Origin: an uncultured Ruminococcus sp.
Lineage (GTDB): Bacteria > Bacillota > Clostridia > Oscillospirales > Acutalibacteraceae
DNA length: 55,476 bases
NCBI GenBank assembly: GCA_902762395.1
Contig: CACWOA010000001.1
Span: forward strand, 1 to 55,476
Direction: 5' to 3'
Shown: one piece after another, positions 4,970 through 46,557 of the stretch
Numbering within the stretch: position 1 is the first letter of the stretch
Layout: each line of letters begins with the position of its first letter
Made by a program: the position numbers and the translations under genes
The notes under the pieces: model-generated
The model's input: the letters and a program-made list of their open reading frames with translations, nothing else
Told to the model about the DNA's origin: nothing
Databases searched by the model: none

Positions 4970-6094
4970 ATGGAAAGACAAAACAAACCCAACGCAAAAA
5001 AGAACCGTCTGAAACGGGGTGCTATCCTCCTTTCGTGCGTGGCGGGGGCATTCCTTCTGATTATCGCGGGATATATCGCCTATGTGCTGATGACATATAA
5101 CCGCATCGGGGACAACCAGACGCTGGAACCTGCCGGAACCGCCGGAACCGACACACTCAAAACAGACACGGAATATACCGCCATCACCTACAATATCGGC
5201 TTCGGCGCCTACACACCCGACTATACGTTTTTTATGGACGGCGGCACGCAATCTTGGGCGGCGTCGAAAGAAAGCGTTATACAGTGCATTGACGGAGATA
5301 TCGCTCTTTTAAAACAATACCGTCCCGACATCGCCATGATACAAGAAGTGGATACAGACTCTACCCGCAGCTATCATATAAACGAGGCGGAACGGATGCA
5401 GAATGCGTTTGACGGTTTTTCCTCCACCTTCGCTGTCAATTATCATTCCGCGTTTCTGTTTTACCCTTTTCTTCAGCCTCACGGAGCTTCCCACTCGGGA
5501 CTTCTGACGCTCAGCACCGCGCGGATAGCCTCCGCCACACGGCGCAGTTTGCCGATTTCGGAAAGCGTGTCAAAGTTCATTGACCTCGACCGCTGCTATT
5601 CCGTCAACCATATCCAAACGGAAAACGGGAAGGAATTGGTCGTCATCAACGCCCATCTGTCCGCATACGGAACGGACAGTGATTTGCAGGCACAACAGCT
5701 TCAAAAGCTGTTCGGAGATATGCAGCAGGAATACGAAAAAGGGAATTATGTCATCTGCGCCGGTGACTTCAATCATGATTTTACCGGACATTCCAAGGAA
5801 CACTTTAATGACGAGGTTCCCGAACAATACAGCTGGGCGGCAGAGTTTCCCGATGAGATGATACCGGCTCATTTTGATAAACTGACCGATTACCACAGCG
5901 GACTCACCATTCCCTCCTGCCGCAACTGTGACAAACCTTATGGACCGGACTGTTTTACATTGATCGTTGACGGATTTATCGTTTCCGACAATGTGGAATC
6001 CGCCTTTATGGATGTGGTCGACAATCAGTTTCTCTACAGCGATCATAACCCGGTCGTATTAAAATTCAAGCTGAAACCGTCTGATCACGCGTAA
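4970..6094 (+). CDS. Membrane-anchored endonuclease/exonuclease/phosphatase (EEP) family protein
   Basis: It has an N-terminal TM helix. The EEP motifs are ITYNIG, MIQEVD, INAHLSAY, GDFNHD and YSDHNPV. Confidence 0.8.
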   Translation: MERQNKPNAKKNRLKRGAILLSCVAGAFLLIIAGYIAYVLMTYNRIGDNQTLEPAGTAGTDTLKTDTEYTAITYNIGFGAYTPDYTFFMDGGTQSWAASKESVIQCIDGDIALLKQYRPDIAMIQEVDTDSTRSYHINEAERMQNAFDGFSSTFAVNYHSAFLFYPFLQPHGASHSGLLTLSTARIASATRRSLPISESVSKFIDLDRCYSVNHIQTENGKELVVINAHLSAYGTDSDLQAQQLQKLFGDMQQEYEKGNYVICAGDFNHDFTGHSKEHFNDEVPEQYSWAAEFPDEMIPAHFDKLTDYHSGLTIPSCRNCDKPYGPDCFTLIVDGFIVSDNVESAFMDVVDNQFLYSDHNPVVLKFKLKPSDHA

Positions 6095-16274: not shown

Positions 16275-16595
16275 ATGAGATCCGTCGATGCCTTTCTTCT
16301 CGGCTGTCTTGCCGTCTTAGCCATCTATCTTATCATCATCAGCGCCTTTGCGGTCTATCAGACCAAGCGCGACAAAGCCCTTGCCAATGTCCCCAAGGAT
16401 TCCTCCCATTACTGGCGCATTCCCGAATTTCAGCTTATGCTGATCTCGGCGCTGGGCGGTTCCTTCGCCATGTACGCCACCATGAAAAAGATTCGCCACA
16501 AGACCCAGCACCCCAAATTCATGATTGGCATTCCCGTCATCATGGTGGTGCAGGTCGCGCTGGCCGCCTTCATCGTCTGGCTGCGGTTTTCCTGA
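16275..16595 (+). CDS. DUF1294 family membrane protein
   Basis: It is a small three-helix membrane protein with the pattern WRIPE..L..SALGGSFAMY..MKKIRHKTQHPKF. Confidence 0.78.
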   Translation: MRSVDAFLLGCLAVLAIYLIIISAFAVYQTKRDKALANVPKDSSHYWRIPEFQLMLISALGGSFAMYATMKKIRHKTQHPKFMIGIPVIMVVQVALAAFIVWLRFS

Positions 16596-16651: not shown

Positions 16652-17683
16652 TTGAAAAAAATAACGCTCGGCATGGACGTCGGCATTGACCTCGGCTCCA
16701 CCACCGTCAAAATCTACACGCCCGGTCGCGGAATCGCTCTCGAGGAACCCACCATGGTCGCCGTGGACAGGGACACCGACGAGATTCTCGCCTTCGGCTC
16801 CGACGCGCGGCAGATGCTGGGGCGCACGCCGGAAAGCGTCGCCGTCGTCAGCCCTGTGGAATACGGGCGCATCCGGAATTTCCGTCTCACCGAAATCATG
16901 CTCACCGCTTATGTCAAAGAGGTGTGCGGCAACAAAATCTTTATGCCGCGCGTGGTGGTGTGCGTGCCTTCGGGCGTATCGGAAGTGGAAAAAAGCGAGG
17001 TGGTGGAATCGCTGCGGGCAGCCGGGGCGCGCAGAGTCTATCTGATCGAAACCGTCGTGGCGGCGGCGCTGGGCGCAGGGGTGGATATCTCGCAGCCCCG
17101 CGGGCGCATCGTCTGCGACATCGGCGGCGGCACCACCGACATCGGCGTGCTCACGCTCAACGGCACGGCCACCTCCCATTGGGTCAAATACGCGGGACAT
17201 TCCTTCAATGAAGCGCTGATTGACTACATCCGCCAGCGGTTCGGTCTGCTCATCGGACCCCGCACGGCGGAGCTCATCAAGCGGGAGGCAGGCTGCGTGA
17301 TACCGCGCGAAGCGGTTCTCACCGTCACCGCCAAGGGTCGCAGCGCCAAAACGGGTATGCCTGACATGATTCAGCTCACCTCTGAGGATATTTTAGAAGC
17401 CTTTGAGGAACCCGCCATTCACATCTGCCGCGCCGTGCAGCACACGCTGGAGGAAACGCCGCCCGCACTTGCCGGAGACCTTCTCAGCGGAGGCATTACG
17501 CTGACAGGCGGCGGCGCGAAGCTCTACGGCATCGACCATCTGATCGCCGAGCGCACCAAGCTCAGCGTCACCGTCGCCACCGACGCCGCCCAATGCGTCG
17601 CTCTCGGCACGGGCGAAGCCATCCGCTTTATCGACACGCGGGACAAGCTGGCAAAGGACACCTCGCCCCTCGATGTGTTTTGA
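16652..17683 (+). CDS. mreB: Rod-shape-determining actin homologue MreB/Mbl
   Basis: The actin-fold phosphate and adenosine motifs are GIDLGST, DIGGGTTDI and LTGGGA. TTG at 16652 follows GGGAGG. An ATG at 16673 is an alternative start. Confidence 0.9.
   Translation: MKKITLGMDVGIDLGSTTVKIYTPGRGIALEEPTMVAVDRDTDEILAFGSDARQMLGRTPESVAVVSPVEYGRIRNFRLTEIMLTAYVKEVCGNKIFMPRVVVCVPSGVSEVEKSEVVESLRAAGARRVYLIETVVAAALGAGVDISQPRGRIVCDIGGGTTDIGVLTLNGTATSHWVKYAGHSFNEALIDYIRQRFGLLIGPRTAELIKREAGCVIPREAVLTVTAKGRSAKTGMPDMIQLTSEDILEAFEEPAIHICRAVQHTLEETPPALAGDLLSGGITLTGGGAKLYGIDHLIAERTKLSVTVATDAAQCVALGTGEAIRFIDTRDKLAKDTSPLDVF
17546..17683 (+). repeat. Direct repeat copy 1 (3' end of the intact mreB)
   Basis: It recurs at 21577-21708. 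By eye I count 10 substitutions and one in-frame 6-nt gap. Positions 17594-17645 are identical to 21619-21670 (52 nt). Confidence 0.9.
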
Positions 17684-17752
17684 TTTTCATACAGGGAACG
17701 GCTTCCTTCGGAAGACAGGCGGTCCGGGAAGCAGCTATCCCGAAATAATATC

Positions 17753-17790
17753 GGCATAGTCGGTCAGGCATGATCGGCTATGCCTTTTTT
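17753..17790 (+). terminator. Rho-independent terminator after mreB
   Basis: The stem ggcatagtcggtc / gatcggctatgcc (with G-U pairs) is followed by tttttt. Confidence 0.7.
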
Positions 17791-17922
17791 GGTAGATAAA
17801 AAGGAGGCTTTTCCTATTGGTCATTCAACCACCTTACCAATACCACTGTCGATAATTCACAAATTGTTCATACAATGAGCCTTTCAAATGCGTTTTATCT
17901 ATGTAAGGAGGCATTGAACAAC

Positions 17923-18417
17923 ATGACAACACCCGAAGAAATCATCGCCAGATATTCCACACTGGTGATGAACATAGCAAGGTCGCGCGTAAGTTTCTCT
18001 GACGCGGACGATGTTTACCAGGAGGTATTTTACCGATACATAGACAAGGAACCGCATTTTAAGGACGAAAAGCACGAAAAGGCCTGGTTTATCCGTGTGA
18101 CATGCAATATTATCAACAGCATGTACCGTAAATCAGAGCTGAAGCAGCGTTTCGACATGCCGGACGAGGATATGTGCGACATCATCTCAGACAAAGACTT
18201 TGCCGCCGAAGCCGAACAGAAGGCGGATTTTGAAAACCGCCTCACCAGGCTTGGCGCAAAGGAAAAGGCGGTCCTGATGCTGTATTTCGACTGCGGCTAC
18301 AATGTCCGGGAAATAGCGTCTATTTATCAAGTGACAGAGAATGTGATAAAGCGGCTTTTGATGAAGGCAAAAAGAGACTATCGCAATATCGGGGAAAAGG
18401 AGGACAAGCACAGATGA
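17923..18417 (+). CDS. ECF-type sigma-70 family factor (second copy in the window)
   Basis: The region-2-like segment is DADDVYQEVFYRYI...KAWFIRVTCNII. The region-4 HTH-like segment is YNVREIASIYQVTENVIKRLLMKAKRDY. The ATG at 17923 follows AAGGAGG. The track start at 17875 has no RBS. Confidence 0.85.
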   Translation: MTTPEEIIARYSTLVMNIARSRVSFSDADDVYQEVFYRYIDKEPHFKDEKHEKAWFIRVTCNIINSMYRKSELKQRFDMPDEDMCDIISDKDFAAEAEQKADFENRLTRLGAKEKAVLMLYFDCGYNVREIASIYQVTENVIKRLLMKAKRDYRNIGEKEDKHR

Positions 18418-20354
18418 GTCACACAAATCCCACTTTATTTGACAGAGAGCATTCCCATCGCGATGAGGAACAAGTGACGTTCCGTTTGGTGATGCGCGAG
18501 GATCCGGTGTCGGACGAACTGAAGGCCGCTACCATAGCCGGAATGAAGCAGCGGCTGAAAGCGAAGAAACAGCGCGAGGCAAGGCGCAAAATGATTACCA
18601 GGCGGGTCGTCGCCGCAGCCGCCGTCGTGCTGGTACTGCTCTGTATCACACCGCTGGGCGGATATGTCACGAGCGCCGCCGAGAGCTTCTTTTCGTCGGT
18701 TTCGGAGTGGATGAACAGCGTATTTAAAATAAGCCGTTCCCGCGTTGACGCCGACCAGGAAGAAAGATTCAAAATAGATATCACCGAAGCCATGCTGGTC
18801 AATGATTCGCTCTGTATATCGCTCAAGACCAATAACGACCTGCTGCAGCTCAGCGCGGAGGGCAGAATTTACGACGAAGAGGGACACAGTGTTCCGCTTT
18901 ATGCCACCCCCCGCAAGGCAGGCGTTATAGGAGGATTACTCGACGATAACGGCGGTAATAACGGATGGAGAATGTACGCGCCGGATCTATACGATGTGAT
19001 CAAATCGCCCGACGGCAGCTATCGCTGTTCCCTGACCGTAACCGCCCGACTCGAAACGGACGACGCCTGTTTTTCGGATCGCACCGAGAAAAAAAGCTTT
19101 GATTTTCCGCTGGAAAACGTGGATAATCTGTTCAAAGCCAAGCGCTATAAAATAGGGAAGAAAATAAAAAACAACGGCGTCATATTCAACTTTACCGAAC
19201 TGCTTGTTTCAGAAAACTCTCAGACTGTCATGGGAACCGTTACCTGTGAAGACGGTCATTCTTTCCATGCGCATGACTGGTTCGCAGCAGAATTGACTAT
19301 GCCGGATGTGACAGACAGGAAATACGGTCAGGAGGATGTCTTCAGCGGCAATTTTTCCCTTTCAGACGCCTACAGGATAAGTAAGACAAAATATGTGATA
19401 ATGTGTGAGTTTGCTTCCAATTATCAATATTATGAGAATAATACCGACTACTACCATTTCCATGAATTTGAAAAACCGCCGTACAAAATTATCATACATT
19501 CGGTGACATACAATAAGGTGACAGAGAAACAGGCATACTCCGAAGCAAAGCCGATCGAGTATGGAAAGCTTCCCGAAATATACCTGCCGATAGCGTACAA
19601 TCAGCGCGGAGAGATCGAAACAACATATCAAAATATCTCATTCCCTGTTACCGATAACATTAGCATCAGGCTCAACGGCATAGAGAAAAACCGCACCGGA
19701 CGGTACGGATATGAATTCGCGGACAAAAAGCCGGACTATAAACTCAGCTTTACCGTCGATCAGGGAGAAATGATGTCGGTGATGTCGGATCAATACGGAA
19801 AACACATAGATGTCATGGACGGAATCAATGCCACCACCCAATCGGGAATGTTTCCGGTCGTGTTTTCCGCGATGAGCAAGGGACGCGAGGTGTTTCGTAT
19901 GCGGTGCAAAATGGATTTTGGCGATTATAATGATATCACTCTGAGGGAGGACGGTCATTATGTACACAATGGCATTATCTGGCTTGAAAGACCTTACGAG
20001 GAATATCTGATGACGAATGAATTCGGTGAGACGCCTGGGGTGTTCAACATCATCGCGGATAACATGAATGCGTTAAAAAATGCTTCCGGAGAGTATCCCT
20101 CACTGGGCGCTGTCTTTAAGAAGTTTGATATTGATACGCTCAGACTTGTTTCCGTAGGTCTGTATATCAATTATTATGAAGACACGGAGCATGCCGTCGT
20201 AGATGAATGGGCTAAAACTATCACGCTGGCGGATCCTGCCTATTACAACTTCTCCAGACTGCCTGAGCAGACAGGCGGCAGCTATACAAGTGCCGAGCAG
20301 GAAAGAAAGACTGTCAAGGTCAATCTGACCGTTACCGCAACGGAGCAGCCATAG
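18414..20354 (+). CDS. Putative anti-sigma factor: single-pass membrane protein with a large ectodomain of unknown fold
   Basis: An ATGA overlap joins it to the sigma gene stop, and the RBS is AAGGAGG. It has about 60 cytoplasmic residues, a TM helix (VVAAAAVVLVLLCITPLGG) and about 560 aa outside. The layout resembles DUF4179-type anti-sigma factors, but the domain was not verified. Confidence 0.6.
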   Translation: MSHTNPTLFDREHSHRDEEQVTFRLVMREDPVSDELKAATIAGMKQRLKAKKQREARRKMITRRVVAAAAVVLVLLCITPLGGYVTSAAESFFSSVSEWMNSVFKISRSRVDADQEERFKIDITEAMLVNDSLCISLKTNNDLLQLSAEGRIYDEEGHSVPLYATPRKAGVIGGLLDDNGGNNGWRMYAPDLYDVIKSPDGSYRCSLTVTARLETDDACFSDRTEKKSFDFPLENVDNLFKAKRYKIGKKIKNNGVIFNFTELLVSENSQTVMGTVTCEDGHSFHAHDWFAAELTMPDVTDRKYGQEDVFSGNFSLSDAYRISKTKYVIMCEFASNYQYYENNTDYYHFHEFEKPPYKIIIHSVTYNKVTEKQAYSEAKPIEYGKLPEIYLPIAYNQRGEIETTYQNISFPVTDNISIRLNGIEKNRTGRYGYEFADKKPDYKLSFTVDQGEMMSVMSDQYGKHIDVMDGINATTQSGMFPVVFSAMSKGREVFRMRCKMDFGDYNDITLREDGHYVHNGIIWLERPYEEYLMTNEFGETPGVFNIIADNMNALKNASGEYPSLGAVFKKFDIDTLRLVSVGLYINYYEDTEHAVVDEWAKTITLADPAYYNFSRLPEQTGGSYTSAEQERKTVKVNLTVTATEQP

Positions 20355-20371
20355 AAAGGACGGTGTTGGAT

Positions 20372-21559
20372 ATGGCAGGCAAAAAAATAACAATCCGTAA
20401 GATATTACCGCTTAAGCCCGATAAGACGATGGTAAGGAAAATGTGGCAAAGCCGCAGCGCGCGTGTTTCGGTATTCTTTCTGCTGGTTTCTCTGCTGACC
20501 GTCACCGTACTGCTGCTGCTTCCTCCCGTGCAGAACAAGCTCAGGGAATTGACGCACTATCGCTCCATGAGCGGTCCCGTAATTGCCGACGTCCCGTCAG
20601 AGCAATATGACAAATGGGAACAAGGCAGAGGAGACTGTCCGGAAACCAGAATGATGATCGGCAGCTTCGACGACACCACAAAAATGGGCAGCCTTACCTT
20701 CGGCTTTGAAAGGCTGTATGTCGTGAAGGAAATAAATGAAAGCTACGAATCCGATGTGGTCGCCGAGGTAAAATGCACCCACCTCGAAGGAAAGGACGGC
20801 TTCGGTCAATACATTCCCAATCACAAGCTGCAATTTATGATCGTCGCCCAAAAAGACGGATTGCCCTTAATGAACATATACTTTAGTTACGATTCATACG
20901 ACCAAGACGGCTGTTTTTTCTATAATGCCGCTCGCTATGATGAGGATGAATACCGATATGAAAGTATTCACGAAACATTCCCGTGGACAACCAACGGCGT
21001 ATATGTTCATTTTGTTCCGTGCGGGGTTGAACTGCGGGATGAAGAAATGCTTCTCTCACGCTACGGTCATGAACTGCTGGAAAGATATAACAAACGCGAG
21101 CAGGAAAAGAATATGGCGGACTATACAATCGAAGAGCCTGCGCTGATATCCGGGATTGATTCCGAAAGTCTCCACAAGCTGAATGTTTCCGATCTCATCG
21201 AGGCGATCCGCCCTGACAGGTATGTCATCGCTTATATCGCACTGGGCGTCAGCAATTACAAAAACGTGCAAGCCATCTATAACCCGGACGGCGACACCGT
21301 TTCACCTTCTGACATAGCCGGAAAGAGCTGGATATACAGTAGCCCTGAATATGACGGATATGGCTATGAATATCTCTGCGGCGATTACCGTCCGGGACAG
21401 CTCTACAGCCTTTGCGACCGGAAGTATTACACCCCGCCTGAGAAAACGGAGGTTTCAGAGCCGATGTATCTCATTGTTGACGATAAACTGGAGGCAACGG
21501 AGGCGTATTCCAAAGTGTTTGCCCCGTTTTTGCAGATCAGGGAAAAAACATCCGATTAG
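20372..21559 (+). CDS. Hypothetical single-pass membrane protein
   Basis: It starts 15 nt after the previous stop. The ATG at 20372 has an AAAGGA RBS. It has a TM helix (VSVFFLLVSLLTVTVLLLL) and about 340 aa outside. I recognise no family. Confidence 0.6.
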   Translation: MAGKKITIRKILPLKPDKTMVRKMWQSRSARVSVFFLLVSLLTVTVLLLLPPVQNKLRELTHYRSMSGPVIADVPSEQYDKWEQGRGDCPETRMMIGSFDDTTKMGSLTFGFERLYVVKEINESYESDVVAEVKCTHLEGKDGFGQYIPNHKLQFMIVAQKDGLPLMNIYFSYDSYDQDGCFFYNAARYDEDEYRYESIHETFPWTTNGVYVHFVPCGVELRDEEMLLSRYGHELLERYNKREQEKNMADYTIEEPALISGIDSESLHKLNVSDLIEAIRPDRYVIAYIALGVSNYKNVQAIYNPDGDTVSPSDIAGKSWIYSSPEYDGYGYEYLCGDYRPGQLYSLCDRKYYTPPEKTEVSEPMYLIVDDKLEATEAYSKVFAPFLQIREKTSD

Positions 21560-21576
21560 CCGGTTGTCCGGATGAC

Positions 21577-21708
21577 GCCGAGCGCACCAAGCGCAGCGTC
21601 GCCGCCGACGCCGCCCAGTGCGTCGCTCTCGGCACGGGCGAAGCCATCCGCTTTATCGACACGCGGGACAGGTCGGAAAAAGACACCTCGCCCCTCGATG
21701 TGGTTTAA
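21577..21708 (+). pseudogene. Orphan mreB 3' fragment (direct repeat copy 2)
   Basis: In frame it reads AERTKRSVAADAAQCVALGTGEAIRFIDTRDRSEKDTSPLDVV*, compared with AERTKLSVTVATDAAQCVALGTGEAIRFIDTRDKLAKDTSPLDVF* in the intact gene. It has no start codon and no upstream mreB body. Confidence 0.88.
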
Positions 21709-21711
21709 CGA

Positions 21712-21768
21712 AACGAAAAATATCCCGGTGCATCGCCACACGCACCGGGATATTTTTGTTATTTTTTC
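21712..21768. terminator. Bidirectional rho-independent terminator
   Basis: A perfect 14-bp stem, aaatatcccggtgc / gcaccgggatattt, has an A-run upstream and T-runs downstream. It serves the mreB remnant on the plus strand and the methyltransferase on the minus strand. Confidence 0.85.
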
Positions 21769-22397
21769 ACAGCCACTGTATGATTGGCATATGTTTGCCA
21801 ATCAGGTTCATAGTCATCCACCGCCTGGTTGCCCCACATATCCCAGTCGTCACGATTGCCCCGGGCAAACAATTCCAGCCGCGGCGCAGAAGAACAAGCC
21901 TCTATCAGATCGACAAATTCATCCGGCTTTCTGCTGTGTTCCCGCTTCACTGATCGTATCAGGTTCACCTGTGACCTCCCCGGCTGCAAAGTGCGATTTT
22001 TGTCTCCTTTGACGCCAAAAAGCAAAATCTCTGTCACATTGCGAAAATAAAAGCCAACACCTCGACCATCAGGCTGACCGTCTTTTCTTACCTTTTCCCA
22101 TACCAGATTGGTTTTGTACATAAACCCCCACGCCTTCATCACCGCAAGACCTTCGGGCAAAAGCGCATTGGGCACCCATAAATATAAATGGCATTTTTCT
22201 TCCGCCACCTCTGAAACAGGCAGGGACATAATGCTTTCCAAATCCATCGTGGTATATCGGTTCAGCCGCTTATGCTCCGGCGCAACTTTGCCGGTTCGAT
22301 TCTGAAACTGCCACGGAGGATCCGCATAAATCGTGCGGTATTTTTTCCCATCTGTAAACGCCCTAAAATCGGCAATCGTTTCTTCTAAAGTTGTCAT
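21759..22397 (-). CDS. MT-A70-family DNA methyltransferase (DPPW motif; probably N6-adenine)
   Basis: It contains IYADPPWQF, then HLYLWVPN and a C-terminal SRKPDEF, the pattern of MT-A70-type enzymes. The ATG at 22397 lies 1 nt after the endonuclease stop and has a GAGGA RBS. The track start at 22412 is TTG. Confidence 0.83.
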   Translation of the reverse strand: MTTLEETIADFRAFTDGKKYRTIYADPPWQFQNRTGKVAPEHKRLNRYTTMDLESIMSLPVSEVAEEKCHLYLWVPNALLPEGLAVMKAWGFMYKTNLVWEKVRKDGQPDGRGVGFYFRNVTEILLFGVKGDKNRTLQPGRSQVNLIRSVKREHSRKPDEFVDLIEACSSAPRLELFARGNRDDWDMWGNQAVDDYEPDWQTYANHTVAVKK

Positions 22398-22398
22398 T

Positions 22399-23073
22399 TC
22401 AGCAGTCCTCAATACAAGATTTCTTTATTCCGACAGCCAATATCGGACAGCCGCCGTTTCTGCGCGAATCCAAACGGTCGATGAGTTTTCCCATCCAGGT
22501 AGTAGAAGCGCCGTATTTCTTCAAAATACCGATATGGCGGAATATATCGTTCAATTCTTCTGATCGGGTTACAATAATGCCCACATCAATGATGCCACAG
22601 TCAAAATAAGTCCGCATCGCCAATAAATCACGGTCAAACGTCTGATCCTTGCTGTTCCATTCCAAGTCAAACGCCACTTTGTTCTTTAAAAAATCAATAT
22701 TGTGACCGTCAATATAGCCGGTAATCATTTTTTCTTCAAAAGGCTGATCGGAAAATCTTCCTCTCCGCTGTGCGACCTGGCGGGGGTACATCTTCACCAG
22801 CAAATCCCCGGTGATTCTGATTTCCCGCCAACCGAGCGGATACAATACGCTGTCAAATTTTTTGGGAATCGGACTTTCGTTGCCGCCTGCCATTTTCAGG
22901 TCATCAACGGAAATCACCAATTGGTTGAGACACATCTGAATCTCTTCCCACTCTTGCGGGAAAGCATCACTCAATATTTCTAAAGCGTGACCGTAATTAT
23001 AAAACTCATATTTTCTGCTTAATTCATCAGAAATTGGCACCAAATTTCCTTCACCTGCCGCCGTTTGATTCAA
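22399..23073 (-). CDS. BglII/BamHI-fold type II restriction endonuclease
   Basis: The N-terminal YNYGHALEIL..W.EI resembles BglII YNHADEIL..WKEI. The segment IDFLKNKVAFDLEW aligns with the BglII catalytic segment IDFGKRDTLVEVQF. The start is uncertain: TTG at 23073, or GTG at 23040 which follows GAAGGA. Confidence 0.7.
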   Translation of the reverse strand: MNQTAAGEGNLVPISDELSRKYEFYNYGHALEILSDAFPQEWEEIQMCLNQLVISVDDLKMAGGNESPIPKKFDSVLYPLGWREIRITGDLLVKMYPRQVAQRRGRFSDQPFEEKMITGYIDGHNIDFLKNKVAFDLEWNSKDQTFDRDLLAMRTYFDCGIIDVGIIVTRSEELNDIFRHIGILKKYGASTTWMGKLIDRLDSRRNGGCPILAVGIKKSCIEDC

Positions 23074-23113
23074 AAAACACCGTAAAAACGTCTTTTTACA
23101 GTCTTACTGTTTG

Positions 23114-23142
23114 ATTATAGCAAAAAGCCGAACCCTTGTCAA
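23114..23142 (-). promoter_or_regulatory. Consensus sigma-A promoter of the R-M operon
   Basis: On the minus strand it reads TTGACA, a 17-nt spacer, then TATAAT. Confidence 0.7.
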
Positions 23143-23164
23143 TTTCAAATTGCGTCATTGACAA
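23136..23164. repeat. Inverted repeat overlapping the R-M -35 box
   Basis: The arms are ttgtcaat and attgacaa, separated by 13 nt. It could be an operator or the weak terminator of the upstream SdpI-like gene. Confidence 0.5.
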
Positions 23165-23207
23165 AGTAAAAACATCTCACCCGTGCCAATATGTTAAACG
23201 AAGGCTG

Positions 23208-23915
23208 TTACGGATTTTCCCCGCTCCGGATTTCCGCCCGATACACGCGGCGGGCATACACCAGCATGATCGCCGTCGCCGCCATAAGATAGCCCAGCAT
23301 CAGAAATACCGTAAGAAGCACATCCGCCAGCAGCGCGGTCACCATCGTCGCCACACCTGTGAGCATCATCACAATGCCGCCGAACCGATTGCATTTGCGC
23401 CATGTGGCGTCGTTGTACATGCTCCACGACACCCGCATGCCCACCGTGCTGTTCTTTCTGGTTTTGGGCATATAATTGCCCAGCACGATATACAAAGCGC
23501 CTGTCAGCACAAACGTGGCTCTGGAAATATTCTCCGCCTGCGCCGACCCGTCCGAAGCCGCCCCACGGTAAGCCGCATACAGAATCATGCCCTGCATGGC
23601 GGTAAAAAACACCGTCACCGCCGCGCCGACAATCCACATCACCTTGGCATTGGACGCCGCCTGCACGCTCTCCTTGTCCTCCGCATTCTCTTTGGACTTC
23701 CTTTCATAATAGGAAGCCAGCGCCGCGAAAAACAGCGCCATGCCGACCGTCATCACCGGCAAAAGAAGGTTTTCGTATCTGCTGCCCCAGCGGTCGATTT
23801 CCCACGCCGCGTTGTAGTGCATCGGCACGCGGTCGGGCATCATCGGCAGCACCGCCGCCGTACCGACCAGCGACACAAACGCCGTGATCCACATGATTCT
23901 TTTGGCTGCTTTCAT
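23208..23915 (-). CDS. SdpI/YhfL-family membrane protein (DUF1648 + SdpI domains)
   Basis: The DUF1648 pattern is PDRVPMHYNAAWEIDRWGS. The SdpI pattern is GNYMPKTRKNSTVGMRVSWSMYNDATWRKCNRFGG. The ATG at 23915 forms an ATGA overlap with the upstream regulator stop. Confidence 0.8.
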   Translation of the reverse strand: MKAAKRIMWITAFVSLVGTAAVLPMMPDRVPMHYNAAWEIDRWGSRYENLLLPVMTVGMALFFAALASYYERKSKENAEDKESVQAASNAKVMWIVGAAVTVFFTAMQGMILYAAYRGAASDGSAQAENISRATFVLTGALYIVLGNYMPKTRKNSTVGMRVSWSMYNDATWRKCNRFGGIVMMLTGVATMVTALLADVLLTVFLMLGYLMAATAIMLVYARRVYRAEIRSGENP

Positions 23916-24181
23916 TGTCCCGTTCCCCCAAACTGCTCCACCCACAGAATCAGCTCCTGCAAGACAGAGGTGTTGATTTCATAATAGACAAAATTTCCCT
24001 GCCTGTATTCCATCACCAGATCGGCGCTTTTGAGAAGCCGGAGGTGATAGGACAGCGCGGCGGGTGTGATCTGTAGTGCTTCCGCGATTTCTCCCGCGCT
24101 CATGCGTCCATTCCTCAGCATGACCAGAATCTCGCGGCGCTGCCTGTCGGACAGCACCTTGAAAAGATTGGATTCCCCCAC
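23912..24181 (-). CDS. ArsR/SdpR-family winged-helix repressor
   Basis: LFKVLSDRQRREILVMLRNGRMSAGEIAEALQITPAALSYHLRLLKSADLV closely resembles the B. subtilis SdpR pattern. The start is GTG, 7 nt after AGGTGG. Confidence 0.85.
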   Translation of the reverse strand: MGESNLFKVLSDRQRREILVMLRNGRMSAGEIAEALQITPAALSYHLRLLKSADLVMEYRQGNFVYYEINTSVLQELILWVEQFGGTGQ

Positions 24182-24369: not shown

Positions 24370-24700
24370 GTAATAGAAACCAACAGCCATGACGGGAACC
24401 ATTTCCTTTTCCCATCCGACCCCAGAGAGAAGCCGCGCGGTGAAAGGCTTCGTCGGAATAAAGTGAACCCCATTCCCAGAGCTTCGGTGAGAACGTCTGC
24501 CGCGCCAATCGGCGGGACGGTAATTTCCGACGACTTCCCCGCGTTATGGGGGTAACGAGAGCATCGCGGACGTATATTTCAGAAAAATACGCCGGATGAA
24601 TTCGGGTGGTAACACGGATTTTTTAGGCTTAGAATCCGCCCCGATCCGCTTGGGTATTTTTCAGATATACCAAGGCGTTTCGGGGCGGTTTTATTTTTAT
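24370..24700 (+). promoter_or_regulatory. T-box riboswitch leader (tRNA-Pro inferred)
   Basis: The stem-I elements are AGAGAG and GGTGAAAG. The T-box sequence AATTCGGGTGGTAACACGG lies at about 24597-24616. The terminator arms are aatccgccccga (24633-24644) and tcggggcggtt (24680-24690), followed by a T-run. CCC triplets occur in the expected specifier region, but I did not fix the exact specifier. Confidence 0.8.
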
Positions 24701-24739
24701 CATCTTATTACTTTTCTATTTGCAGGAGGAACGATTCCA

Positions 24740-26458
24740 ATGAAACTTGACAAACTGGTCGGCGACCGATTCAAAGAAAGACCCGCCGAATGCTCCATCG
24801 ACAGCCACGCGCTGATGGTGCGCGGCGGCTACATGAAATTCATGGCAAGCGGCATCTATTCGCAGTACATGCCGCTCAAGCGCATTCTCCGAAAGATCGA
24901 GAACATCATCCGCGAGGAAATGGACGCGATCGACGGACAGGAAGTGCTTTTCCCTGTTGTCATGCCCGGCAGCCTGTGGGAGGAATCGGGGCGCTACAAC
25001 TCCATCGCCAGCGAGCTGCTCCGCTTCAAGGACAGAAACGGCACGCCCATGGTGCTGGGTATGACCCACGAGGAGGCCGCCGTTCATCTGGTGCGCGATT
25101 ATGCCACCACCTACACCAAATACCCCTTCATGATCTACCAGATTCAGACCAAATTCCGCGACGAAGCGCGCCCCCGCGCCGGCATGATCCGCGTGCGAGA
25201 ATTCACCATGAAGGACGCCTATTCCTTCCACACCTCGCAGGAAGACCTCGAACAGTACTATGACCGCTGCCACAAGGCCTACGAGCGTATCTTCGCCCGC
25301 GCCGGCATTCCCGAAACCATCTCGGTCAAGTCCGATTCCGGCATGATGGGCGGCAGCGTGTCGCATGAGTTCATGCTTCTCACACCCGTGGGCGAGGATT
25401 CCATCGTACTCTGCCGCGACTGCGGTTACAGCGCCAACATGGAGGCCGCCGAGTGCATTACCGACAACATCCCCGACGCGGAACTGAAAGAATGCGAGCT
25501 GGTTCACACCCCCGACGCGCACACCATCGACGATCTCTGCGCGTTCCTCGGCACCACCCCCGAAAAGACCTGCAAGGCGGTGGTCTATCAGCGCAATCAG
25601 GACGACAGCTACATCATTGTCTTCCTGCGCGGCGACCTCGACGTAAACGAAACCAAAGTCACCAACTTCCTCGGCTGCGACATTCATCCGGCGGTTATCA
25701 CAGAGGAAAGCGGCATCGCGGCGGGCTTCATCGGTCCCAAGGGGCTTCCCGAGGGCGTAACCGTTCTTTACGACAATTCCCTGATTGGCATGACCGGTTT
25801 CCCCTGCGGCGGCAACAAGACCGACTACCACTATGTCAATTTCAACATGGCCCGTGACTTCGGCGAGGTGGAATACCACGACTTTGCCAAAGCTTTTGTC
25901 GGCGGCACCTGCCCCTGCTGCGGCAAGAAGACGCTCGAAATTTCCCGCGGCATCGAAGTGGGCAATATCTTCCAGCTCGGCACAAAATACACCGAGTCCA
26001 TGAATATGCAGTATGTGGACAGCGAGGGCGAAATGCACTATCCCATCATGGGCTGCTACGGCATCGGCGTGGGACGTCTGGCCGCGTCGGTCTGCGAAGC
26101 CCATCACGATGATTACGGTCCCATCTGGCCGATCTCCATCGCGCCCTGGCAGGTCAATCTCTGCTGTGTTCGTTCGGATGACGAGCAGTGTCGGACCTTT
26201 GCCGACAGTCTCTATGACGAGCTGCAAAAGCGCGGCATAGAAGTCATCTATGACGACCGCAACGTGCGCCCCGGCGTGATGTTCTCCGACAGCGATCTGC
26301 TGGGCATTCCGGTGAGAGCCGTCGTCAGCCCGCGCAACATGAAGGACAGTGTTGTGGAACTCTCCACCCGCGACAAATCGGTGCAGAAGAAGGTTCCCAC
26401 CGATAGCGCCGCGGACGAAATCCAGGCGCTTGTCAACGAATTACTCGCCGCGTTTTAA
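24740..26458 (+). CDS. proS: Proline--tRNA ligase (bacterial type with editing insertion)
   Basis: It has class-II motifs (FRDE..PRAGMIRVREF, GCYGIGVGR) and a length of 572 aa. The ATG at 24740 follows GGAGGA. The upstream 48 codons of the track ORF lie inside the T-box terminator. Confidence 0.95.
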   Translation: MKLDKLVGDRFKERPAECSIDSHALMVRGGYMKFMASGIYSQYMPLKRILRKIENIIREEMDAIDGQEVLFPVVMPGSLWEESGRYNSIASELLRFKDRNGTPMVLGMTHEEAAVHLVRDYATTYTKYPFMIYQIQTKFRDEARPRAGMIRVREFTMKDAYSFHTSQEDLEQYYDRCHKAYERIFARAGIPETISVKSDSGMMGGSVSHEFMLLTPVGEDSIVLCRDCGYSANMEAAECITDNIPDAELKECELVHTPDAHTIDDLCAFLGTTPEKTCKAVVYQRNQDDSYIIVFLRGDLDVNETKVTNFLGCDIHPAVITEESGIAAGFIGPKGLPEGVTVLYDNSLIGMTGFPCGGNKTDYHYVNFNMARDFGEVEYHDFAKAFVGGTCPCCGKKTLEISRGIEVGNIFQLGTKYTESMNMQYVDSEGEMHYPIMGCYGIGVGRLAASVCEAHHDDYGPIWPISIAPWQVNLCCVRSDDEQCRTFADSLYDELQKRGIEVIYDDRNVRPGVMFSDSDLLGIPVRAVVSPRNMKDSVVELSTRDKSVQKKVPTDSAADEIQALVNELLAAF

Positions 26459-45060: not shown

Positions 45061-46557
45061 TCACAGATTCAGCCAGAAAGCCGGGCGAACAGCGCAGAAG
45101 TTGTCATCGACACTGTCGCCGTCCTGATCGACGTAGCCACCCGTATCCACGTCCGCGGCGTCACTACCACTGAGGCCGGGCGAGCGAAGCCACCACCAGC
45201 CAGAGCGATCCCTGAAATCGCGACCTTTTGCATGAGCGTAATCGGTTGTATAGGCTTTTCCGTCGGAATAGGACGAGAAATATGTTTTCGCTTCCTCTAT
45301 GCTGAGCGCAAAGATTTTGTCCTGCGTGGCGTTTCCTCCGCTTGTTCCGTATTCGGGATTATCAGGATTCTGATTGGTAACGGTCGCTATTTTTGCCTGT
45401 TCGCTCGTGCTGAACGCTTCGTTCAGAAAATCGTTGTTCATCCACTGGCGCAGCGTGCAGGTTTCCCATGTAACTAATACTCCTTCTTCATTATATGGCA
45501 CATAATCCAGCAGCTTCTCCGAAATGACAAGCGCCTTGCCATTCTTCACGGCAAGCACACGCCATCCTATCGGCTGTATCTCGCCGTCTGTCCCCTGCTT
45601 ATAATTGCCGAATGTGAAATGATCGCCGACGGAAACACTGTCAAGCTCGGAGAGTGGTTTAACACTTATTGCATTGCCTACCGCCCATATACCGCCCACA
45701 ATTGCCACGACCAGCACCAAAGCGACCGTGACGATCAACGGCGTATGTTTGAATTTGACCGATTTTGTCGCGGCGGGTTTATTGGGCGCTTGTATGGGGT
45801 TACTGTAGTTATAAACAGGCAATGCGGGATAAACAGATGCAGCGGCAGACTTTTGTGGTTTTGGCGCAGCATTGGCTACCTGAGTCGGCTGAGATGACAC
45901 CGTCGAAGCGGTCTGCCCGACCGATTGCGGCACGGGAACGGGTTCCGGCTTTGGTTTTGGTTCCGGCTTCGGCTTGAGTTCCGGCTTCGGTTCTGGTTCC
46001 GATTTAGGTTCCGGCTTCGGTTTGGGTTCCGGTTTAGGTTCGGCTTTTGCCTCGGTGGGCTGAAAGGTCGGCGACGGCGGCTGGGGCGGCATTCCCTGTA
46101 TCAGGTGAAATTCCGTTACCATTGTCTGCGTGATGCGGTCAACCGAACATCCCGCCACCTTGATGCCTTGCAGACGCGCCACGTTCCAGTACCAGATTTT
46201 CAGGTCGTCATGAACGTCCTCCGGGTGTTCATAGGGATCCAGAGCATCCAGCCACACCACATAGCGTTTTTTGCCGTACATTTTCGCCACATCAAATTCA
46301 ATGCGCACCCATGTATCATTCGCCGCAAACAGGGCTTTGGTGGCAAAGATAATAACCGCTTCACTGGCTTTGATGTTCCGGTTGATTTCTTTTTCCCACA
46401 GTTCGCCCTTTTCGATGCCGTAATCGTACCACATCGGCACACCCATTTCGTTGAGCCTGCGGGTGATAGCGCCTACCCGTTCGGCATCCTCGCTTTTGTA
46501 GCTGATAAAATACCGCTTGCCCTCCAAAACAGGCATAAATCCAAAATTGGTCGCCAC
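45061..46557 (-). CDS. TIR domain / (E/K)P repeat / TM helix / DUF6273-like ectodomain protein
   Basis: The N-terminus has KRYFISYKSED...GVPMWYDYGI..GELW...VIIFATK...WVRIEFDVA (TIR hallmarks including the conserved Glu). The repeat run is EPKPEPKPKPEPK. The TM helix is LIVTVALVLVVAIVGGIWAVG. The C-terminal pattern is WRVLAVKNGKALVISEKLL...TWETCTLRQWMN...WWWLRSPG...VRPAFWLNL. The start is GTG, 7 nt after GAGGTG. Confidence 0.8.
   Translation of the reverse strand: MATNFGFMPVLEGKRYFISYKSEDAERVGAITRRLNEMGVPMWYDYGIEKGELWEKEINRNIKASEAVIIFATKALFAANDTWVRIEFDVAKMYGKKRYVVWLDALDPYEHPEDVHDDLKIWYWNVARLQGIKVAGCSVDRITQTMVTEFHLIQGMPPQPPSPTFQPTEAKAEPKPEPKPKPEPKSEPEPKPELKPKPEPKPKPEPVPVPQSVGQTASTVSSQPTQVANAAPKPQKSAAASVYPALPVYNYSNPIQAPNKPAATKSVKFKHTPLIVTVALVLVVAIVGGIWAVGNAISVKPLSELDSVSVGDHFTFGNYKQGTDGEIQPIGWRVLAVKNGKALVISEKLLDYVPYNEEGVLVTWETCTLRQWMNNDFLNEAFSTSEQAKIATVTNQNPDNPEYGTSGGNATQDKIFALSIEEAKTYFSSYSDGKAYTTDYAHAKGRDFRDRSGWWWLRSPGLSGSDAADVDTGGYVDQDGDSVDDNFCAVRPAFWLNL
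45931..46060. repeat. Degenerate 6/12-nt tandem repeat inside the TIR gene
   Basis: On the plus strand there are repeated ggttccggcttcgg-type units. They encode the (E/K)P linker. Confidence 0.8.

Follow-up and report, generated by a model that had tools for sequence, protein, structure and literature searches.

Two described classes of genomic insertion resemble the locus reported here. Insertions with long target duplication, as set out by Furuta, Abe & Kobayashi 2010 (PMC2853133), are shorter than 20 kb and lie between direct repeats of more than 30 bp, and these repeats can be aligned with an unoccupied site in a related genome; the insertions carry no mobility genes, their repeats often span a stop codon, and they come mostly from naturally competent species. 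The second class, cis-mobilizable elements (CIMEs), is described in PMC6323972 as having retained attachment (att) sites after the loss of integration and transfer genes. We analyzed a stretch of 55,476 nucleotides (hereafter, the window) from an uncultured Ruminococcus sp. (contig CACWOA010000001.1, assembly GCA_902762395.1), in which the 3' end of mreB occurs twice and brackets a foreign three-gene cassette. Our analysis indicates that this cassette is best filed under recombinase-free insertion with long target duplication, and not as the att scar of a site-specific element.

The repeated 3' end of mreB and its cassette-free counterparts

The intact mreB gene (16652..17683, + strand) encodes a protein of 343 aa that matches Pfam MreB_Mbl (E=2.9e-104) as well as NCBIfam PRK13927 (MreB; 358.6 bits at a cut-off of 293), and it is syntenic with sister genomes. 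Alignment with MAFFT and a repeat finder located copy 1 (17545-17683, + strand), which comprises the last 45 codons and the TGA stop codon of this gene, and copy 2 (21576-21708, + strand). The copies, with a length of 133-139 nt each, are 92% identical and differ over 133 aligned columns by 10 substitutions and by a gap of 6 nt, as copy 2 lacks 17570-17575. In the window haplotype, a block of 52 nt on the + strand is identical between them (17594-17645 and 21619-21670), which is the sole run of more than 30 identical nt within the repeat. When equivalent copies from near-identical contigs were compared with the window by BLAST, E values of ~1e-46 were obtained, placing the repeat far beyond chance.

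Copy 2 lacks a gene body, keeps the mreB frame, and ends in TAA. No open reading frame (ORF) of at least 40 aa in the ORF listing ends at 21708, and the interpretation of copy 2 as a small ORF was rejected, as no start codon yields a product of that length. It represents a non-coding relic of the mreB 3' end with a G+C content (GC) of 67% within a low-GC island, contiguous with an intrinsic terminator (T2, see below). Its sequence is identical in six further contigs (L002, L003, L005, L006, L087, and L089) and, within the repeat, also in L004 and L105, while L001 shows one single-nucleotide polymorphism. The original prediction, which had been made by eye, placed both copies with left edges within 1 nt of those computed; its count of 10 substitutions and one 6-nt gap, the 52-nt identity, the differences on both flanks of the identical block in the window haplotype, and the description of copy 2 as a gene-less fragment with intact frame and stop codon were all reproduced.

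The insert between the copies spans 3.9 kb and has a GC of 47.8%, compared to 54.7% for the window. At third codon positions, GC is 0.57-0.60 for the cassette genes, 0.49-0.50 for a neighboring pair of restriction-modification (R-M) genes, and 0.74-0.78 for flanking host genes. The insert starts with a leader of 171 nt (17684..17854, + strand), which is present only in occupied loci and for which a terminator scan revealed an intrinsic terminator of its own (T1; 17753-17784, + strand). T1 consists of a stem followed by T6 (GGCATAGTCGGTCAGGCATGATCGGCTATGCC), with a folding energy of -24.1 kcal/mol (z -6.2), and its stem begins 69 nt downstream of the mreB stop codon. T2 (21716..21757) is a bidirectional intrinsic terminator (-26.4 / -29.8 kcal/mol on the two strands, z ~-6) that also serves a convergent methyltransferase gene.

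Cassette-free sites were found on at least 17 contigs of sister lineages (L007, L008, L090-L092, L094-L104, and L107). Two of these, L007 (a metagenome-assembled genome [MAG] of an uncultured Clostridia) and L008 (rumen MAG RUG14799), are species representatives in GTDB with 97%-identical MreB, and further sites were obtained from exact-protein look-ups of members of the 90% MreB cluster. The direct repeats correspond to a single copy at the unoccupied sites, and the cassette is to be classed as an insertion or, at the least, as an insertion/deletion polymorphism. In L008, the gene order is mreB, T2 orthologue, and SdpI; in L007, it is mreB, T2, methyltransferase, truncated endonuclease, and SdpI. 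Since mreB runs straight into the T2 orthologue in every empty-site relative, T2 is the ancestral mreB terminator. Furthermore, an identical MreB protein (P0069) is encoded at both empty (L104, L107) and occupied (L105, L106) sites, and occupied and empty forms were found together in one sample (ERZ27280137). Thus, the assignment of T2 as ancestral terminator and the expectation of relatives in which mreB leads directly into it, both part of the original prediction, are borne out, and not all relatives carry both copies. The same is true for its description of the DNA between the copies as more AT-rich, with three genes, which encode an extracytoplasmic function (ECF) sigma factor and two membrane proteins. 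In contrast, its view that the terminator behind copy 2 is the stronger one does not hold, as T1 and T2 are about equal in folding energy and z score.

Directly beyond T2 lies a type II R-M pair, consisting of genes for an MT-A70 methyltransferase (21759-22412, - strand; Pfam MT-A70, 1.7e-31) and a BglII-like endonuclease (22399-23073, - strand; Pfam Endonuc-BglII, 7.8e-41). The corresponding region (21759-23211) has a GC of 45% and is itself a presence/absence polymorphism: besides L008, six of the cassette-free contigs are devoid of it (L090, L094, L099, L100, L104, and L107), and in nine others it is decaying (L091, L092, L095-L098, and L101-L103). The endonuclease is shortened to 88 aa in L007, L091, L095-L098, and L101-L103, and the methyltransferase is also broken in L095 and L098. 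Because the R-M pair is present at cassette-free sites (e.g., L007 and L096), it reached the site independently of the cassette. The R-M genes were also considered as cargo of the duplication, which was rejected, since they lie outside the repeats and were already at cassette-free sites. It should also be noted that the right junction of the R-M region (23197-23211, TTAAACGAAGGCTGT) resembles the 5' flank of T2 (CTAAACGAAAAAAGG), possibly representing a short target repeat.

In size and duplication, the locus agrees with insertion with long target duplication, as a 3.9-kb insert is bounded by repeats of 133-139 nt that align with an empty-site genome, and it contains no other mobile-element genes. 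Moreover, in both cases the repeat abuts or spans the stop codon, so that the target gene survives, and the GC of the insert is below that of the genome. The locus differs in that the repeats bracket an ECF sigma cassette, with the R-M pair just outside (21759-23073), and in that the differences between the copies are patterned. The presence of both R and M genes inside the insert, which is not the case here, defined the screen of Furuta et al. and not the mechanism (PMC2853133). The locus is not a system of a new kind, but it adds Clostridia, and cargo other than R-M genes, to the range of insertion with long target duplication. It provides a natural case in which a small regulatory module enters the chromosome beside an essential-type gene, leaving the gene unbroken and carrying no mobility gene, and uncultured rumen bacteria sample all states of the locus: empty, R-M only, cassette plus R-M, and several recombinant haplotypes.

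Haplotypes at the locus and the origin of the duplication

The occupied contigs fall into three copy-1 haplotypes. H1 (window, L001-L006, and L089) combines a window-type left arm and core with the right-arm residues K-L-A-K; H2 (L087, L088) has an L008-type left arm, with core and right arm as in H1; and in H3 (L105, L106, and probably L093), left arm, core, and right arm are all L008-type up to the stop codon, with the T1 leader starting immediately thereafter. H3 is based on three independent contigs from two assemblers, and two of them are k141 contigs that cannot be chimeric across a 27-nt overlap; the L093 contig stops 5 nt past the stop codon, which makes its assignment a probable one. 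In L105, which holds both copies, the core of copy 1 differs from that of copy 2 at 5 positions, and L106 and L093 share the same copy-1 allele. Therefore, the 52-nt identity characterizes certain haplotypes and not the insertion as such.

Copy 2, T2, the cassette, and the R-M pair are nearly invariant, with ~0-3 differences per 200 nt between the window and L105 from 17780 to 23180. The entire block from 17684 to ~23190 (5.5 kb) is ~99.9% identical between the two, compared to flanks that diverge by 5-19%, and L106 is likewise near-identical over 17785-19662, where its contig ends. The mreB gene itself is mosaic: a 3' part of the window allele (17244-17575) is ~9% different from L087, L088, L007, and L008, and its 5' part is nearly identical to L087. 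Given these haplotype mosaics, the near-identity of the island in diverged backgrounds, and the co-occurrence of both forms, homologous recombination is frequent at the locus, moving the 5.5-kb low-GC island as a unit and overwriting copy 1. As separate observations, the stretch 17244-17575 is a recombination tract with its right edge at the start of the repeat core, and L004, an occupied contig, carries a sister-lineage patch (5213-5620, corresponding to 21565-21965 of the window) that covers T2 in its right half as well as the methyltransferase gene at its 3' end; this patch, in which 23 differences fall within 400 nt, is another recombination tract inside the island.

In the window, the differences between the copies form a core-and-arms mosaic, which is only marginally significant. 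For 11 differences spread over 133 columns, the probability of an identical stretch of 52 or more is P = 0.039, which makes the clustering of differences outside the core only modestly significant; the contrast between the arms (11 differences in 81 positions) and the core (0 in 52) yields P = 0.004 if the block is specified in advance and 0.039 for any block. In order to polarize the differences, L007 and L008 were used as outgroups. Both copies have derived states in common at 17548 and at four core sites. Private to copy 2 are the changes at 17562, 17579, 17593, 17648, 17649, 17678, and 17682 as well as the 6-nt deletion, and those in its right arm convert Leu to Ser, the family-conserved terminal Phe to Val, and TGA to TAA. 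Private to copy 1 (in H1 and H2) are 17646, 17652, and 17656, clustered within 11 nt. The distribution of shared and private sites differs between left arm plus core and right arm (Fisher P = 0.041). This mosaic can be explained in three ways: by hybrid att sites, by a homologous crossover of the Campbell type within the one long stretch of identity, or by duplication followed by decay and conversion.

With moderate confidence, we favor an insertion with long target duplication that required no dedicated site-specific recombinase, for which a single crossover of the Campbell type is the simplest route, and that is now spreading by homologous recombination in its flanks. A foreign low-GC three-gene module with its terminator-bearing leader was inserted at the very end of mreB, whereby the last 133-139 nt of the gene were duplicated. 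In the proposed sequence of events, a DNA fragment from a close relative, bearing the mreB 3' end, its terminator T1, and the cassette, may have been circularized by one illegitimate join, now found at 21575/21576, and a single crossover of the RecA type (Campbell) may then have joined it to the mreB 3' end in the chromosome. We infer this circular intermediate and the RecA crossover from the structure of the junctions and copies: a crossover in the longest identical stretch would produce a duplication with hybrid copies without any integrase, copy 1 would keep mreB intact and terminated by T1, and copy 2 would be left as a dead relic still joined to T2. The island (T1 leader, cassette, relic, T2, and BglII-like R-M pair; 17684 to ~23190) has since been moving among diverged rumen lineages by homologous recombination in the flanking genes, with copy 1 being repeatedly overwritten by mreB alleles of sister lineages.

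Several features of the locus are consistent with this proposal. The similarity between the copies stops exactly at the stop codon, and the left end consists of an intact mreB frame, its stop codon, a 69-nt spacer, and a strong terminator. Both the exact edge at the stop codon and the normal terminator are expected if the left end is the native mreB-plus-terminator arrangement of a relative and only the right junction is illegitimate. Indeed, the only clearly illegitimate joint is 21575/21576, where the DNA 16 nt past the gene for a 395-aa protein meets mreB at codon ~298. An identical core with diverged arms would follow, since the longest run of identity is where a crossover between sequences that are ~90% identical has to be resolved. 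Furthermore, since copy 2 bears the derived states of the window lineage at 17548 and the four core sites, the duplicated fragment would stem from a very close relative or from the same lineage. Campbell-type integration of a circular DNA, as with suicide plasmids, likewise results in a direct duplication and hybrid copies, has its crossover in the longest identical stretch, and does not involve a site-specific recombinase. It differs from the proposed events in that a natural circle derived from chromosomal DNA has to be inferred here and that ~135 nt of homology at ~90% identity would be an inefficient substrate. Besides Furuta et al., a further reference for insertions with long target duplication is Nobusato et al. 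2000 (Gene 259:99).

Five points weigh against the Campbell-type origin. First, neither the donor arrangement (mreB, T1, and cassette without the duplicate) nor a circular or attP form was found, which is weak evidence, as the organism is absent from the Joint Genome Institute (JGI) and viral collections scanned. Second, no sampled MreB outside the occupied alleles has the residues of the copy-2 left arm or the copy-1 right arm. Third, the published repeats of insertions with long target duplication, in the rows of Tables 2 and 3 of PMC2853133 considered here, are 93-100% similar, compared to 92% at this locus, and have the R-M genes between and not beside them. Fourth, no competence or DNA-uptake route is known for this uncultured organism. 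Finally, the data fit a Campbell crossover and a staggered in-situ duplication with subsequent divergence and gene conversion alike, with the test of polarized sites giving P = 0.04.

In the latter scenario, the lineage's own mreB 3' end would have been duplicated as foreign DNA was inserted by an unknown illegitimate mechanism, and all the differences would have arisen later: copy 2 would have decayed, copy 1 would have acquired three clustered changes or undergone a short conversion, and the core would have been kept identical by conversion. The window-lineage derived states that copy 2 has in common with copy 1, from 17548 through 17629, agree with such an origin, as does the left arm, in which every difference, the 6-nt deletion among them, is a private change of the non-functional copy 2; the right-arm changes of this copy look like relaxed constraint in comparison to more than 60 homologues ending in ...SPLDVF. 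In PMC2853133, the class is, moreover, described without a known mechanism. However, the right edge of the duplicated target would have to coincide exactly with the stop codon, the foreign DNA would have to start with a well-placed terminator, an extra homogenizing event would be needed for the different densities of changes in arms and core, and the three copy-1 changes are clustered within 11 nt. We therefore regard a staggered in-situ duplication as rather improbable.

The direct repeats would also favor deletion, and the cassette with both copies could be ancestral, with sister lineages having lost the cassette by recombination between the repeats. The right arm of the sister lineages indeed has the copy-2 states at 17646, 17652, and 17656, as would be expected of a deletion product, and the arms are ~14% different, which exceeds the 5-7% divergence of mreB between lineages. 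However, repeated precise losses would be needed in L007-type and L008-type lineages, which themselves differ in R-M content, and the four window-specific derived core states in both copies would require later conversion. Moreover, the insert is compositionally foreign, and the ~99.9% identity of the island across backgrounds that are 5-19% divergent points to a recent spread. This renders an ancient arrangement with secondary losses very improbable.

The attachment-site interpretation of the 52-nt block

The original prediction had explained the identical core and the diverged arms by attL and attR sites, formed when an element integrated into the 3' end of mreB and supplied a surrogate end. 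One part of it stands, as the insertion is real and the duplicated 3' end keeps mreB intact. Its observation that there is no recombinase here or nearby can even be extended, since none of the ORFs of 150 aa or more in the 55-kb window has an integrase, transposase, or relaxase domain; the remainder of the window encodes housekeeping functions (carAB, dapF, ddl, argS, proS, priA, fmt, def, rsmB, rlmN, a PASTA kinase, rsgA, gmk, and others). Likewise, the alignment that it had called for does reveal the core-and-arms pattern, albeit with weak statistics (P ~0.04). The site-specific part is not supported by the comparison: the core differs in H3, the mreB alleles are mosaic, the statistics are weak, and homologous cassettes occur elsewhere without repeats. 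Thus, the att-site reading fails in two tested defining features: neither a tyrosine, serine, or DDE recombinase in or beside the element nor a cognate element was found (a CIME can do without its own recombinase but depends on a cognate ICE with the same att site), and the core is not constant at both ends in all occupied genomes, being identical in H1 and H2 but differing at 5 positions in L105.

For an element of the CIME type, the repeats would be attL and attR of an mreB-3'-end element with an integrase that was lost or acts in trans. CIMEs are a recognized class (PMC6323972), and a foreign insert does lie between the direct repeats, which match a single copy at empty sites. The window haplotype has its identical 52-nt block with differences on both sides, and at three right-arm sites, copy 2 has the outgroup state and copy 1 the derived state, as predicted for hybrid att sites. 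As in the 3'-end integration of CIMEs, ICEs (integrative conjugative elements), and IMEs (integrative mobilizable elements), a foreign segment is bounded by a duplicated gene 3' end, the target remains intact, integrase and transfer genes are lacking, and a candidate attB-like empty form was found. This form, L086, the only attB-like contig of the same lineage, corresponds exactly to the predicted attB, with the host left arm, the core, the copy-2 right arm, and T2, followed by the R-M pair. However, in L086 (ERZ920293 scaffold_20316; 1-760), the first ~755 nt come from another organism; they belong to an AT-rich DUF362 gene that has been joined in frame with the 3' end of this organism's DUF1294 gene. 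L086 was therefore downgraded as proof of a same-lineage attB, since the contig is an inter-genome chimera at its other end, and its junction through a perfect 52-nt repeat is unreliable and may represent an assembly artifact or a simple repeat-mediated deletion.

The locus differs from CIMEs, ICEs, and IMEs in that the core varies among occupied genomes (5 positions in L105, with the same copy-1 allele in L106), the insert comprises merely 3.9 kb of cargo, and no circular form was found. No cassette protein matched a recombinase or phage family in NCBIfam or PHROG, a distant blastn search of 17646-21618 against plasmid and phage collections gave no match, and no relative of the 646-aa cassette protein was detected in the viral contigs scanned. 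A gapped pattern for attP or a donor (copy-2 left arm, N50-54, and copy-1 right arm) had 0 matches in JGI metagenome contigs, which lack the organism itself, and a degenerate core pattern had 0 matches in JGI metagenome and viral contigs; the absence of the core indicates that the organism is not in these collections, so that the negatives say little. Apart from occupied alleles, no donor MreB with the copy-2 left arm (KRSVAADAAQ) or the copy-1 right arm (KLAKD) was found in 63 homologue clusters or 14 cluster members. A cognate ICE or integrase for the mreB site was not found in the plasmid, phage, and viral collections either, and none is known for an mreB site. In view of the missing recombinase in 55 kb, the varying core, the chimeric L086, the homologous cassettes elsewhere without repeats or recombinases, the marginal statistics, and the rampant homologous recombination at the locus, we consider site-specific integration unlikely; the lack of an attP form refers to collections without the organism, and no viral or plasmid relative was found.

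Even less probable, in our view, is an integrase-less mobile unit that uses the conserved mreB 3' end as an attachment site and is mobilized, in trans or in cis, by a recombinase not seen here or through a novel homology-guided mechanism; the crossover would then take place in the 52-nt block, and L086 would be a true excision product. If this quite unlikely case were true, mreB would be a previously unrecognized integration hotspot in rumen Clostridia. The recombinase-independent insertion with subsequent spread by homologous recombination, which we favor, has a more general implication: ordinary homologous recombination is able to create a pattern of identical core and diverged arms and to remove it again, which calls for caution with att assignments from single genomes.

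The three-gene cassette and its surroundings

The first cassette gene encodes an ECF-type sigma factor (17923..18417, + strand; called product of 164 aa according to the gene calls in L001, with the longest ORF starting at 17875). Its only Pfam domains are sigma-70 regions 2 and 4 (Sigma70_r2, r4), and it matches TIGR02937 (sigma70-ECF) with 78 bits at a cut-off of 42.9. Its stop codon overlaps by 4 nt with the gene for a 646-aa single-pass membrane protein (18414..20354, + strand; hydrophobic residues ~64-84), which has a sub-threshold match to DUF4179 (E=0.005; 17.6 bits at a cut-off of 30.1) and none in NCBIfam; gene order and transmembrane segment suggest that it is a putative anti-sigma factor. 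The third gene (20372..21559, + strand) encodes a membrane-anchored protein of 395 aa without a Pfam, NCBIfam, or PHROG match and is separated from copy 2 by a 16-nt spacer (21560-21575, + strand). In an AlphaFold2 model based on 4 sequences (predicted local distance difference test score, 47.7), only the N-terminal membrane helix of this protein is confident, and this predicted helix argues against a DNA enzyme and thus against a hidden recombinase.

The cassette resembles ECF sigma/anti-sigma operons of Firmicutes (e.g., SigV/RsiV-like, with anti-sigma factors of the DUF4179 type), in which the stop codon of the sigma factor gene (TIGR02937) also overlaps the start of a gene for a single-pass membrane protein, a co-oriented membrane protein gene follows, and the unit is kept as a block. 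In contrast to these operons, neither its 646-aa nor its 395-aa protein reaches the threshold of any curated family, and among 5.8 billion proteins just 4 homologue clusters were found for each. Every homologue inspected is part of a three-gene unit for a sigma factor, a protein of ~650 aa, and one of ~400 aa. In line with the suggestion to search for the segment at other loci, such units were found downstream of argF (L079, L080, L081, and L108) and of a gene with a metallo-beta-lactamase fold (L082-L085). Around the cassettes at argF and the other loci, no flanking repeats of at least 25 nt were found, and no recombinase was seen near them. Nucleotide homology to the argF-linked cassettes is restricted to 17855-21535, while the T1 leader has no homology to them and occurs only at occupied mreB loci.

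The cassette directly follows argF (ornithine carbamoyltransferase) at 9393-13216 in L079, 552-4160 in L081, and 4955-8661 in L108, and the argF locus may be its older home. The next gene in L079, L080, and L108 is a convergent NUDIX gene, while the L081 contig ends before this position; just after the cassette, at the end of that contig (4331-4426), two 36-nt direct repeats were observed that are 97% identical and 60 nt apart from start to start.

As for the surroundings in the window, a DUF1294 gene (16275-16595, + strand) lies upstream of mreB. Directly beyond the island, genes for an SdpI-like immunity protein (23208-23945, - strand) and an ArsR/SdpR-like repressor (23912-24181, - strand) were identified, which form the right-hand homologous flank used in island movement, and the gene for ProRS (24596-26458, + strand) follows. 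Further away, a 498-aa protein with an N-terminal TIR_2 and a C-terminal DUF6273 domain is encoded at 45061-46557 (- strand), a possible defense-type gene amid housekeeping genes. Finally, a second ECF sigma factor gene (564-1058) overlaps a 162-aa ORF without a family match (1048-1536) at 564-1536 on the + strand, and the two likely represent a sigma/anti-sigma pair.

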